This document shows, piece after piece, positions 3,394 to 10,812 of a DNA stretch of 64,000 bases. Position 1 is the stretch's first letter. Every line of letters begins with the position of its first letter. The stretch covers positions 3,040,001 through 3,104,000 of the forward strand of contig CBDIID010000003.1 in assembly GCA_965279515.1 (NCBI GenBank). Reading direction: 5' to 3'. Position numbers and translations under genes: made by a program. The stretch is from Turneriella sp. GTDB taxonomy: Bacteria; Spirochaetota; Leptospiria; Turneriellales; Turneriellaceae. The notes below the pieces were generated by a model. It did no database searches. It worked only from the letters and a program-made list of their open reading frames with translations, and was not told where the DNA came from.

Positions 3394-3774
3394 TTATTTC
3401 GCTGCGACGGTGATTGTCTTTTTGGCGCTTGCCTTGCGTGGCAGGTTCACCTTGAGCACGCCGTTCGCAATTTCAGCATTGATTGCCTCTGCGTCGACGT
3501 CTTCGCTGACGCGGAACGCGCGCTCATAGCTTGCGCGGCGGAATTCGCGGTGGATCTGCTGCTCTGTTTTTTGTTCAGAGGCAGATTGCGCTGTCGCCTT
3601 GAGTGTCACGATACCGTTTTCAAAGGTAACGTTGACATTCTCTTTGTTCGCACCCGGAACGTCTGCGTAGATGGTGTATCCCGCTTCGGTTTCAGTGATA
3701 TCGACTGCCGGAAGGTAGGTGACACCATTTGCCACCGGGCCTTTCTCCGATGTTTTCTTTTCTAATCCAAACAT
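3394..3774 (-). CDS. Hsp20/alpha-crystallin small heat shock protein
   Basis: PAVDITE, ADVPG, NGVLKVNLP; GGGGAG RBS. Confidence 0.92.
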   Translation of the reverse strand: MFGLEKKTSEKGPVANGVTYLPAVDITETEAGYTIYADVPGANKENVNVTFENGIVTLKATAQSASEQKTEQQIHREFRRASYERAFRVSEDVDAEAINAEIANGVLKVNLPRKASAKKTITVAAK

Positions 3775-3784
3775 AGTCTCCCCC

Positions 3785-4198
3785 TTATTTTGCAACAATC
3801 TCGATTTTGCGCGGCTTCGCCTCTGCGGCTTTGGGCAGCGTGACGGTCAGAATGCCGTCTTTGACTTCAGCGTTGACGCTGTCGCCACTGAGCGGGTGCT
3901 TAAAGCTGATGACGCGCTCAAATTTGCCGGAGGCACGCTCTTCGCGGCCATACTCTGCCTGATCGCGCTTGTTTTCACCGCGGATCGTCAGCTTGCGACC
4001 TTCGAGTTCGACAGTGACGTCTTCTTTCGCGAGGCCCGGAACGCGGGCTTCGATGACATAGGCGTCGTCGTTTTCGGCGATATTGACCGCCGGATAGTAG
4101 CCGCTCATACCGTTGGCAAAACTCCAGCGGAAGATGCGGTCGAATTCATTTTGGACCCCTGCGAGGTCGCTCCAGATAGAATGTGCTTTCACTAACAT
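3785..4198 (-). CDS. Hsp20/alpha-crystallin small heat shock protein
   Basis: YPAVNIAE, ARVPG, ERASGKFER, DGILTVTLPK; AGGAGG RBS. Confidence 0.92.
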   Translation of the reverse strand: MLVKAHSIWSDLAGVQNEFDRIFRWSFANGMSGYYPAVNIAENDDAYVIEARVPGLAKEDVTVELEGRKLTIRGENKRDQAEYGREERASGKFERVISFKHPLSGDSVNAEVKDGILTVTLPKAAEAKPRKIEIVAK

Positions 4199-4242
4199 TT
4201 TCCCTCCTAAAGGCCATTTCTGGCGTTTGTCTTTATTGACTG

Positions 4243-4296
4243 ATAGCACTCTATCAATCACAGTGCTAGTATAATTAAGAGTGTCGTGCCCGGCAA
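4243..4296 (-). promoter_or_regulatory. CIRCE (HrcA operator) overlapping a sigma70 promoter of the hsp20 operon
   Basis: ATAGCACTC-N9-CAGTGCTAG (4243-4269) versus consensus TTAGCACTC-N9-GAGTGCTAA; minus strand TTGCCG-17-TATACT (4296-4268). Confidence 0.85.
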
Positions 4297-6697: not shown

Positions 6698-6725
6698 TTG
6701 ACGCGCATTCCGACGACCATATCCT
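6698..6725 (+). promoter_or_regulatory. putative sigma70 promoter for the ncRNA-slipin locus
   Basis: TTGACG-16-TATCCT, predicting a start near 6732, just before the 5' strand of the closing helix. Confidence 0.55.
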
Positions 6726-6733
6726 TCACCGCC

Positions 6734-7065
6734 GGTGCGGTAATCCTGCGGCGTCGAAACGCCGGGCGGTACCCCTGACGTGTCTTCGGGTATTCTGCGG
6801 AGCATCGTAGCGGCACCAAACTCTTGGGGTAGCGGGTTCGATTCCCGCCCGCAGCAATGCGTGTAGCTCACCGGCAGAGCACAAGACGGAAACCCGAAAG
6901 GGGAGCAAGTTCGACTCTTGCAACGGGCTGTGAACCTGATTTGTGGAGGGTGTCCGTCCCTAACCGGGCACGGCAGTGAGCCTGCCTAAAAAAGTTCGTC
7001 CGGACAAAGGGGCCGGCCCCTCGGGGCACCTGAAAGCTGGCTTTGTAAGTGGTGGATACCGCACC
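6734..7065 (+). ncRNA. structured ncRNA containing a circularly permuted (YrlA-like) tRNA-mimic domain and a second T-arm
   Basis: ends pair (GGTGCGGTA 6734-6742 / TACCGCACC 7057-7065); T-arm GCGGG-TTCGATT-CCCGC; GCAA-capped acceptor stem; D-arm GCTC-ACCGGCA-GAGC; second T-arm GCAAG-TTCGACT-CTTGC. Confidence 0.75.
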
Positions 7066-7173
7066 TGTTAAGTAGCGTCAGCTTCGGCCCGCGTTACAGC
7101 GCAGATGCTTAAGCGCACTTCCGCTGGTCGTATGTGGCTCCTTTGCCTGGATCAGATTATTTTGTGGGGAAAT

Positions 7174-8277
7174 ATGGCTGTAACGATTGAGCAAGACGAA
7201 GTTGGAATTTATTTCCGCGATGGCATCTATAAAAAATTTCTGCTGCCGGGCAAACATACGCTCCCGTTTTTCGGCAAAAAGCTCGTCGAGCTGCATAAGG
7301 TCGCGCAGGAATTCAAGTCATCCAAGAATCTCGAAATTCTTGTCAAAGATGAAAAGCTGGCGAAGCTGCTCGACATTGTCGACGTCGCCGACCACCAGAT
7401 AGCGCTGTATTTTGCCGACGGGCATTTTCAGAAAATACTCAAACCGGGTAAGACAGCATTCTGGAATATGTTGCGCAAAAATACCTTCGAGGTTATCGAT
7501 TTTTCGAAACCCGATATTCCCGCCGAAATTCATCCCTCTATTCTCGCGCATGCAGAGACGGTAGCACACCTGCAGACTGTGAGCGTCGCTTCGTTCCAGA
7601 AGGCGTTGCTGTTCTTCAACGGTAAGTTCGAGCGTGTATTGGAGCCGGGAAAATATTATTTCTGGAATGGGCCGACCAAGGTCACTGCCGAACTCGTCGA
7701 CCTGCGGCAGCAGCAGCTCGACATGACGGGCCAGGAAATCATGACGCAGGATAAGGTGACGCTGCGGCTGAATTTTATCTGTCTTTACCGCATCATCGAT
7801 CCGCTGACAGTTTTTCAAAATATCAAGGAATATGAAAAGCAGCTCTACATTCAATTGCAGCTGATCTTGCGCGAGTATGTCGGCATGCTGAAGCTCGACG
7901 AGCTTCTTGAGAAGAAAGAAGAAGTCGGGCAGTTCATTCTGGAAAAACTTAAGAAGAACGCCGGCGGCTGGGGTATTGAATTTATCGGCGCCGGCGTGAA
8001 AGATGTCATCTTACCAGGTGAGATCAAAGATATTCTCAACAAAGTCATCGAAGCGGAAAAGCGTGCGCAGGCCAATGTCATCACACGCCGCGAAGAGACT
8101 GCCTCGACGCGTAGCCTGCTGAATACCGTAAAACTCATGGAAGATAACCCGCTGCTTATCAAACTCAAGGAATGGGAGCAGATTGAAACCGTTGCGGCGA
8201 AAATAGGCAGCATCTCCGTTTCGAGTGGTGCCGATATTTTGCAGCAGCTGGGTAAGATACTGACTCCCGAAAAGTGA
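7174..8277 (+). CDS. slipin family SPFH/band-7 protein
   Basis: three N-terminal repeats (..LYF.DG.F.K.L.PGK), QEIMTQDKVTLRLN, KDVILPGE, RREETASTRSLLNT. Confidence 0.88.
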   Translation: MAVTIEQDEVGIYFRDGIYKKFLLPGKHTLPFFGKKLVELHKVAQEFKSSKNLEILVKDEKLAKLLDIVDVADHQIALYFADGHFQKILKPGKTAFWNMLRKNTFEVIDFSKPDIPAEIHPSILAHAETVAHLQTVSVASFQKALLFFNGKFERVLEPGKYYFWNGPTKVTAELVDLRQQQLDMTGQEIMTQDKVTLRLNFICLYRIIDPLTVFQNIKEYEKQLYIQLQLILREYVGMLKLDELLEKKEEVGQFILEKLKKNAGGWGIEFIGAGVKDVILPGEIKDILNKVIEAEKRAQANVITRREETASTRSLLNTVKLMEDNPLLIKLKEWEQIETVAAKIGSISVSSGADILQQLGKILTPEK

Positions 8278-10180: not shown

Positions 10181-10579
10181 TTAAAGCCAATTTTCAACTT
10201 TTAATCCGTCAATTCGGCGGAACTCAGCTTCATTGTTTGTGATTAAGGTGGCATTGAGCGACATTGCATGGGCGGCGATTAGCATATCATAGGGGCCGAT
10301 TACTTTCCCCATGGCCTCCAGTGATGCTTTGATATCGCCAAAAATAATTCCGGCTTTTTCATTGAACTCATAGGTTTTCAAAGGTATGAGAAATTGCGCC
10401 AAGGCTATTTGGTTTTCAGACTTCTTCATACTTTTCGCAATTCCGTACTGAAGCTCTGCATAGGTAATAGCAGAGATGCCGATTTTACCCTCTAATTTCG
10501 CAGTCTTGAATTTATCAATGAGGGCAGTGGATCGTTTTCCAATGATATAGATACAGATATTGGTGTCGAGCAAATACAT
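10181..10579 (-). CDS. vapC: type II toxin VapC (PIN-domain RNase)
   Basis: YLLDTNICI, EL.YG, IGPYDMLIAAHA, TNNEAEF; start overlaps vapB stop. Confidence 0.93.
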   Translation of the reverse strand: MYLLDTNICIYIIGKRSTALIDKFKTAKLEGKIGISAITYAELQYGIAKSMKKSENQIALAQFLIPLKTYEFNEKAGIIFGDIKASLEAMGKVIGPYDMLIAAHAMSLNATLITNNEAEFRRIDGLKVENWL

Positions 10580-10812
10580 CAAAAGGTGGGTCGATCCTGG
10601 TCTTTGGGTTGTTGGCGGCCACCTTCAAAGAGATCGTCACTGAAACCGTTGAGTGCGCCTTTCATTAGATCCCATGTATCTTTGGATTTAGGGATGAGCA
10701 TGACGATGTTGGAGTGTTTGGTTATATAGACTTCTTTGCCCTTGAACCGGTATTCCTTAGGGAGCCTGACGGCCTGGCTTTCCCCGTTTTTGAAAAGTTT
10801 TGCAATATTCAT
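10579..10812 (-). CDS. vapB: type II antitoxin VapB (AbrB/VagC fold)
   Basis: AKLFKNGESQAVRLPKEYRF. Confidence 0.93.
   Translation of the reverse strand: MNIAKLFKNGESQAVRLPKEYRFKGKEVYITKHSNIVMLIPKSKDTWDLMKGALNGFSDDLFEGGRQQPKDQDRPTF

Follow-up and report, generated by a model that had tools for sequence, protein, structure and literature searches.

The 64-kb window, by which we mean the whole stretch of DNA that was analysed, holds on its forward strand a slipin gene and, shortly upstream of it, a structured RNA in which a rearranged tRNA shape is embedded. The features of the locus are as follows:

6698..6725, forward strand: predicted sigma-70-type promoter (TTGACG, 16 nt, TATCCT), by consensus match
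6731..7151, forward strand: whole structured non-coding RNA of about 420 nt in three domains, with inferred ends; conserved, with frame-breaking indels
6734..6817, forward strand: domain I, with an outer helix (6734-6737/6814-6817), a hairpin (6750-6763) and a bulged helix (6767-6773/6789-6797), from covariation
6822..6886, forward strand: circularly permuted tRNA cloverleaf (closing helix, T-arm, closed acceptor stem, D-arm), from sequence and comparison
6887..6921, forward strand: remnant of a second tRNA-like unit, with a hairpin (6893-6902) and a second T-arm (6905-6921), from sequence and kept in two of the three closest relatives
6999..7151, forward strand: domain III, a long irregular rod with two conserved internal loops, from comparison
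7174..8277, forward strand: slipin (Band-7/SPFH) gene, 367 aa, Pfam PF01145

Across 6731-7151 each relative carries 8-9 frame-breaking indels, and short reverse-strand ORFs over the RNA were rejected for that reason. The TTGACG of the predicted promoter is kept in all three closest relatives, and the 3' end of the RNA falls about 22 nt before the slipin start codon. No Rfam family reached its cut-off for the RNA at 6731-7151 or anywhere else in the 64-kb window, and 12 related loci gave only three marginal tRNA matches at cut-off. Variants 95-99% alike are present in RNA-library contigs of three studies, over 6738-7126; the contigs start at 6738 and 6741 in two of these studies, which weakly hints at a 5' end near 6738-6741. 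In the four of six RNA runs that this comparison covered, the slipin gene is uncovered by the contigs apart from a 40-nt unrelated match, and because such contigs cannot show level this does not count as evidence. Farther upstream, on the opposite strand, two Hsp20 genes (3394-4261) are also found near the RNA in two close relatives; Lcl and OmpA genes, which separate the Hsp20 pair from the RNA here, were not seen in those two.

Homologues of the protein are named slipin family and are about 367-375 aa long. An ATG at 7105 was rejected as the start codon: it lies inside domain III, and homologues fully cover the 367-aa form. A structure model divides the protein into three tandem beta-repeats, an SPFH core and a helical tail; the protein has no predicted membrane helix and no strong hydrophobic segment (hydropathy maximum 1.16). 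The best structural matches of the model were stomatin, prohibitin and HflK/C (Z 15-16), and residues 1-309 align to residues 322-675 of MVP with Z 10.3-11.8 and an rmsd of 7-9 A over 208-228 residues. Taken alone, the repeats matched the SPFH1 subdomain at Z 6.0 versus Z 3.4-3.5 for the MVP repeats, and a Foldseek search with the N-terminal repeats returned nothing at E 0.001. The modelled likeness between slipin and the vault protein is one of architecture, kinship not being established.

An earlier note on this DNA had described a circularly permuted tRNA cloverleaf, and all of its elements are found where that note had placed them:

6822-6826: TCTTG, 5' strand of the closing helix, which pairs with CAAGA at 6882-6886
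6827-6831: variable loop GGGTA
6832-6848: T-arm
6849-6863: closed acceptor-like stem, comprising C6849, CGCA (6850-6853), a GCAA loop, TGCG (6858-6861), bulged T6862 and G6863
6864-6865: TA between the acceptor-like stem and the D-arm
6866-6880: D-arm, with GG at 6873-6874
6881-6886: A6881, then CAAGA (6882-6886), 3' strand of the closing helix

The order of T-arm, closed acceptor stem and D-arm, which had been likened to that of YrlA RNAs, is borne out: the Rfam YrlA model aligns over its positions 20-89 of 114. The claim that the molecule has neither an anticodon nor a CCA end also holds; the features of a tRNA gene (an open acceptor stem with a 3' end, an anticodon arm) are absent from the cloverleaf, ARAGORN called no tRNA in the 64-kb window, and the Rfam tRNA model scores the region at 15.4 bits versus a cut-off of 29. 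On a tRNA position numbering that we take to be the standard one, eight of nine tertiary contacts carry standard letters. The Levitt pair is C:A in this copy versus G:C in 20 of 23 homologues, and the acceptor-like stem is bulged where close relatives have six clean pairs; with these two blemishes, the copy at 6822-6886 may be decaying. The second T-arm (6905-6921) is absent from the earlier description. It contains another TCTTG (6916-6920), a second perfect complement of CAAGA at 6882-6886, which is missing from one of the three close relatives.

For comparison, 80 genome and 38 metagenome slipin loci were fetched; the nearest named relatives of the locus were Spirochaetes and Turneriella assemblies, and most of the others were Bacillota. 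The cloverleaf alignment comprised 23 copies hand-picked for the same layout, with three rearranged Clostridia copies and the Paenibacillus type left out. In these homologues 97.8% of cells were paired versus 83.2% in shuffles and 38-49% in slid controls, the sequences being related and layout-selected, so that the shuffle counts are not probabilities. Both sides change at 12 of the 20 pairs, including four of five in the closing helix, and the D-arm and closing helix, whose formation the original reading required, are thereby supported by covariation. Energy models do not single out the cloverleaf and were not used as support. In the isolated 65-mer (6822-6886) it is the minimum-energy structure, yet it is no stabler than shuffles (z -0.47); the fold energy of 6725-7155 against shuffles gave z -0.28. 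Support for the closing helix is wholly comparative, because a single-sequence energy model gives it no weight in the full-length RNA (probability 0.00). A pattern scan for the T-arm-then-D-arm geometry returned two sites in the 4.9-Mb genome, 6822-6886 (closing helix 5/5) versus the junction of two real tRNA genes (1/5), and no occurrence in a 3 x 2 Mb Markov control. The rearranged tRNA shape at 6822-6886 is real, and it is one module of a larger RNA; its topology alone is already known.

The remainder of that larger RNA was aligned in the same manner. Domain I was 93.4% paired over 20 homologues, with changes on both sides at 8 of 13 pairs, the outer helix being left out of the count and the 6750-6763 hairpin of the source copy being misaligned by two columns; domain III was 89.4% paired over 48 homologues, with changes on both sides at 10 of 12 pairs. 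Covariation, as read from these alignments, supports all three predicted domains of the ~420-nt RNA, and the flanking domains are more constant across the family than the cloverleaf. The internal loops of domain III (7042-7046 with 7121-7122, and GGATACC 7054-7060 with TTAA 7109-7112) are nearly invariant. Of 115 slipin loci, many of them related or duplicated, a script located the domain III core in 93, with one placement wrong; five metagenome loci that had almost no sequence upstream, or none, had been excluded. A possible 12-nt pairing of 6734-6746 with 7054-7065 was considered and rejected, having a probability of 0.00 and not being kept in relatives.

The tRNA-like module itself varies widely. 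Once duplicates and loci with too short an upstream sequence were set aside, 78 loci remained. Of these, 70 have a T-arm and eight have none; a T-arm followed by a D-arm occurs in 55, two T-arms in 32, and an anticodon-arm-like hairpin in 29, TTT being the commonest anticodon (10 of 38 matches, some of the matches being chance). Judged by these sequences, the cloverleaf is dispensable within the RNA family. In Paenibacillus copies the D-arm is followed by a full anticodon arm, the order expected if a tRNA were opened at its variable loop; Clostridia copies carry two tandem tRNA-like units. In close relatives, the linker at 6882-6921 resembles an anticodon loop left stranded, with a long variable arm after it; judged by tRNA-Ser layouts, this suggests the remnant of a long-armed tRNA. 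An origin from tandem tRNA genes fits both the Paenibacillus and the Clostridia forms, and the permuted module likely arose from the junction of two such genes; a tandem tRNA gene origin has also been proposed for YrlA, in the part of 10.1101/312249 available to us. Several individual leaders illustrate the range. In L017, L023, L060, L004 and others, permuted units are located 220-235 nt into the 330-nt stretch that precedes the domain III core; their anticodon arm is intact and its anticodon varies, TTT being the most frequent. Such units are possible decoys for anticodon nucleases. The leaders of L013 and L080 have lost the first tRNA-like unit by deletion between two T-arms, with domains I and III intact, and those of L071 and L110 have domains I and III and no recognisable T-arm or D-arm.

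We used the domain III model to search 150 other Spirochaetota genomes for the RNA. Slipin was present in seven of them and the RNA in five, all among those seven, with none in the 143 genomes that lack slipin; a laxer search added a sixth, and the slipin gene of the seventh lies near a contig end. A Fisher test for this co-occurrence gave 4e-8, a figure that is overstated, kin not being independent. Within the family, the RNA and slipin occur in the same five of 20 genomes, these five having trained the model. A further 150 genomes around G171 gave one clear match, upstream of slipin, and one weak match that we read as chance. The model found no match at the slipin loci of E. coli, Burkholderia, Photobacterium and Subdoligranulum, so some slipin loci lie outside the family as modelled. 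The Photobacterium locus (L139:2650-2990), which gives ARAGORN calls, has two tRNA-like genes in normal order and a possible diverged domain III that the model missed; the E. coli locus (L137:3150-3490) is preceded by T-arm-like hairpins and followed by a nucleotidyltransferase gene. No slipin relative was found in viral contigs or phage records, and of 41 pattern matches in viral contigs none was confirmed by the RNA model.

In four genomes (G123, G175, G176 and G177) the 1.5 kb downstream of the full RNA holds no slipin gene, and in each the slipin gene is on another contig without a leader; in G123 it sits behind its own promoter-like site and the RNA stands alone. None of the four stand-alone copies has lost domain III or the permuted cloverleaf (closing helix 5/5), and in each a U-tract directly follows domain III; domain I-like motifs were recognised by eye. 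Because G176 and G177 share a gene upstream, a binning error is less likely, but the two count as a single lineage, so the stand-alone copies represent about three lineages. Among five further genomes with a leaderless slipin, the RNA is elsewhere in three and gave no match in the other two, G178 and G179, even on the laxer search. No match was obtained either in G048, whose slipin gene is about 300 nt from a contig end. Action in trans is favoured, because four genomes hold a stand-alone RNA with a U-tract away from a leaderless slipin.

Genes of RNA repair recur around the related loci. RtcB lies beside 46 of 114, two WYL genes beside 52 and 51 of 114, and Hen1, a Pnkp-like kinase, RlaP and a release factor beside a few; RtcB occurs somewhere in seven of the 14 RNA-bearing genomes searched for it. 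The source genome gave no match to RtcB, nor to WYL, Hen1, Pnkp-like or RlaP, so RtcB would be only an optional partner. A slipin gene in the translation-stress regulon of Anabaena is de-repressed 42-fold together with rtcB, according to the accessible text of PMC10272220, and the portion of PMC9938897 available to us is a further source for this association. It is from the RNA-repair neighbours and this co-regulation that we draw a link to stress.

Beyond the three-domain fold, the slipin link across phyla, the absence of Ro60 and the stand-alone U-tract copies, which comparison of the sequences establishes, we give about even chances to the reading that the RNA is slipin's partner and displays an unchargeable tRNA elbow under translation stress. 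The RNA would be transcribed from the promoter at 6698-6725, in the source genome probably together with slipin. The protein would probably bind the RNA at the two invariant internal loops of domain III. Slipin would oligomerise like other SPFH proteins into a predicted ring or cage; this would display the unchargeable elbow and capture tRNA-recognising enzymes during translation stress, the tRNA modules acting as bait or decoy for tRNA-cleaving, repair or rescue factors. The partner reading is weakened by the dispensability of the cloverleaf, by the possible decay of the source copy, by the missing RNA matches in G178, G179 and G048, and by the lack of RtcB, WYL, Hen1/Pnkp and RlaP matches in the source genome. 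A bolder form of it, for which we claim a rather low probability, is a vault-like bacterial RNP in which a cage of a soluble, repeat-bearing SPFH protein would be built on a dedicated ~400-nt RNA, docking at its invariant 3' rod, and interchangeable permuted-tRNA modules would bait enzymes that attack or repair tRNA. Such a particle, if real, would work without Ro60 and, in the source genome, without RtcB.

The partner reading is also weakened by the position of most copies directly upstream of slipin, where a cis-acting leader would be. Such a leader would sense tRNA damage or the level of slipin through its tRNA-like module and set transcription or translation of the downstream slipin gene. 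Several observations suit it: at most loci the domain III core precedes the slipin match by a short distance (median 68 nt), four of the five new model matches were directly upstream of slipin, and a U-tract can follow the outer helix of domain III (TTTT nearby in 20 of 92 linked loci). However, the RNA is intact and apart from a leaderless slipin in the four genomes described above, the ribosome-binding site at the source locus is about 15 nt beyond the predicted structure, and no conserved alternative fold was found. We regard a cis-acting role as rather unlikely.

We hold about the same doubt toward a second alternative, in which the RNA is co-regulated with slipin but not bound by it, and acts as a free decoy that soaks up anticodon nucleases or other tRNA-binding toxins. 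The one or two tRNA-like units of the relatives and the anticodon-arm-like hairpins of 29 loci are consistent with this, and a decoy role has been proposed for YrlA in the text of PMC7790460 accessible to us. A free decoy, however, would account neither for the invariance of the domain III loops and their persistence in copies that have no tRNA module, nor for the tight co-occurrence with slipin, and the source copy has no anticodon arm.

A two-state switch appears very unlikely. The earlier note had suggested that CTGCGG (6795-6800) could pair with CCGCAG (6849-6854), and in this reading a normal-order tRNA-like fold would replace the permuted one. The pairing comprises six Watson-Crick pairs and forms part of the best fold of 6790-6900. 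With the pairing imposed, the fold energy was -161.5 kcal/mol, versus -151.0 kcal/mol with the cloverleaf and domains I and III imposed; these energies are not like for like, domain I having been left free in the switch fold. Against this, none of 22 homologues has an equivalent six pairs at the same offset and a search over 60 nt turned up six pairs in only one of them, the pairing has a probability of 0.03 in the free full-length ensemble, and it would disrupt the covarying helix of domain I. A conserved CTGCGG/CCGCAG switch is unlikely.

The YrlA label fares worst. YrlA is the best Rfam match of the cloverleaf region at low stringency (E 2.6e-5), and the tRNA-like part of the YrlA model aligns to 6821-6888; the score, however, is 33.3 bits versus a cut-off of 69, and the Rsr-binding stem of the model is unmatched. 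Seven homologous loci score 26-37 bits on the same model (RF02553). According to the part of PMC4201824 available to us, YrlA RNAs have a GNCGAAN0-1G Rsr-binding motif and sit within 4 kb of rsr. The stretch 6731-6832 contains no GNCGAA(N)G motif, which turned up in just three of the 78 loci; GTCGAAAC (6753-6760) comes close to it but is not kept in relatives. TROVE/Ro60 (rsr) gave no match in the 99.99% complete source genome (controls matched in two of 14), and none in the 20 family genomes searched, in any of the 19 RNA-bearing genomes searched (the source genome and 18 others) or among 28 cluster representatives of 811 neighbour ORFs at related loci. In the sample of 150 Spirochaetota genomes, TROVE is present in four others, distinct from those that bear the RNA. 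As the slipin-associated RNA is also about four times as large as a Y RNA, we find it hardly credible that this is a genuine YrlA Y RNA tethering Rsr/Ro60 to an effector, and that identity is largely refuted.

What the locus does share with YrlA (RF02553; the available parts of PMC4201824 and 10.1101/312249) is a T-arm before the D-arm, a loop-closed acceptor stem, entry through the anticodon stem and tRNA tertiary contacts; it differs in lacking an Rsr-binding motif and an rsr gene, in falling below the Rfam cut-off, in the much larger RNA that hosts the cloverleaf and in having slipin as the partner gene. A close precedent is b7a-tRNA: in 2016 Burroughs and Aravind predicted a tRNA-like RNA next to a Band-7 gene at RtcB loci (as related in the available part of 10.1101/312249, which adds that the prediction was unvalidated as of 2018 and that YrlA occasionally adjoins a Band-7 gene). 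As there, a tRNA-like RNA adjoins a Band-7 gene here and RtcB is beside many relatives. As far as these accounts go, however, b7a-tRNA strongly resembles an authentic tRNA and is adjacent to RtcB, whereas the unit at the source locus is permuted, without an anticodon and set within a ~420-nt three-domain RNA, in a genome without RtcB, and some copies of the RNA are unlinked from slipin. In Pelobacter carbinolicus, the accessible text of a 2012 paper (PMC3543383) describes Pcar_R0061, a mutant tRNA that precedes a stomatin-like gene, rtcA and rtcB. This too is a tRNA-like gene directly 5' of a stomatin-like gene; it differs in that the text describes one mutant tRNA within an RtcR operon and mentions no larger RNA, and the source locus has no rtc genes. 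An SPFH gene sits in the rtc locus of P. aeruginosa (PMC13086221, in the part available).

Vault ribonucleoproteins consist of the major vault protein, vault RNA and TEP1. The locus resembles them in pairing a soluble SPFH-domain protein that has tandem N-terminal beta-repeats with a non-coding RNA; it differs in that slipin has 367 aa with a short tail, scores higher against stomatin, HflK/C and prohibitin than against MVP, is accompanied by no TROVE protein and would form a cage by prediction only. Bacterial MVP homologues are discussed, with no RNA partner mentioned, in the available part of 10.1101/872010, and the available part of PMC6514570 has no mention of an RNA-slipin module. Our literature search found no description of the large scaffold, though Burroughs and Aravind 2016 may describe more. 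The pairing of a tRNA-like RNA with a Band-7 gene has been predicted before; the ~420-nt scaffold was not found in print.

What stands out is this uncatalogued scaffold, together with its stand-alone copies and the lack of Ro60 and RtcB. SPFH proteins are regarded as membrane scaffolds, and tRNA mimics of the Y-RNA type as partners of Ro60. Here a large RNA accompanies a soluble SPFH protein in both Spirochaetota and Bacillota, also where the two are unlinked, which points to a predicted RNA-protein particle. The invariant loops of domain III offer a handle for a binding test, and the stand-alone copies separate RNA from protein; the unvalidated b7a-tRNA prediction becomes testable, and the outcome could bear on the origin of vaults.

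ARAGORN found 39 tRNA genes and no tmRNA in the whole genome (G000). At 10181-10812, 2 kb downstream of slipin, lies a PIN/antitoxin pair of the VapBC type, a class of toxins that often cut tRNA.
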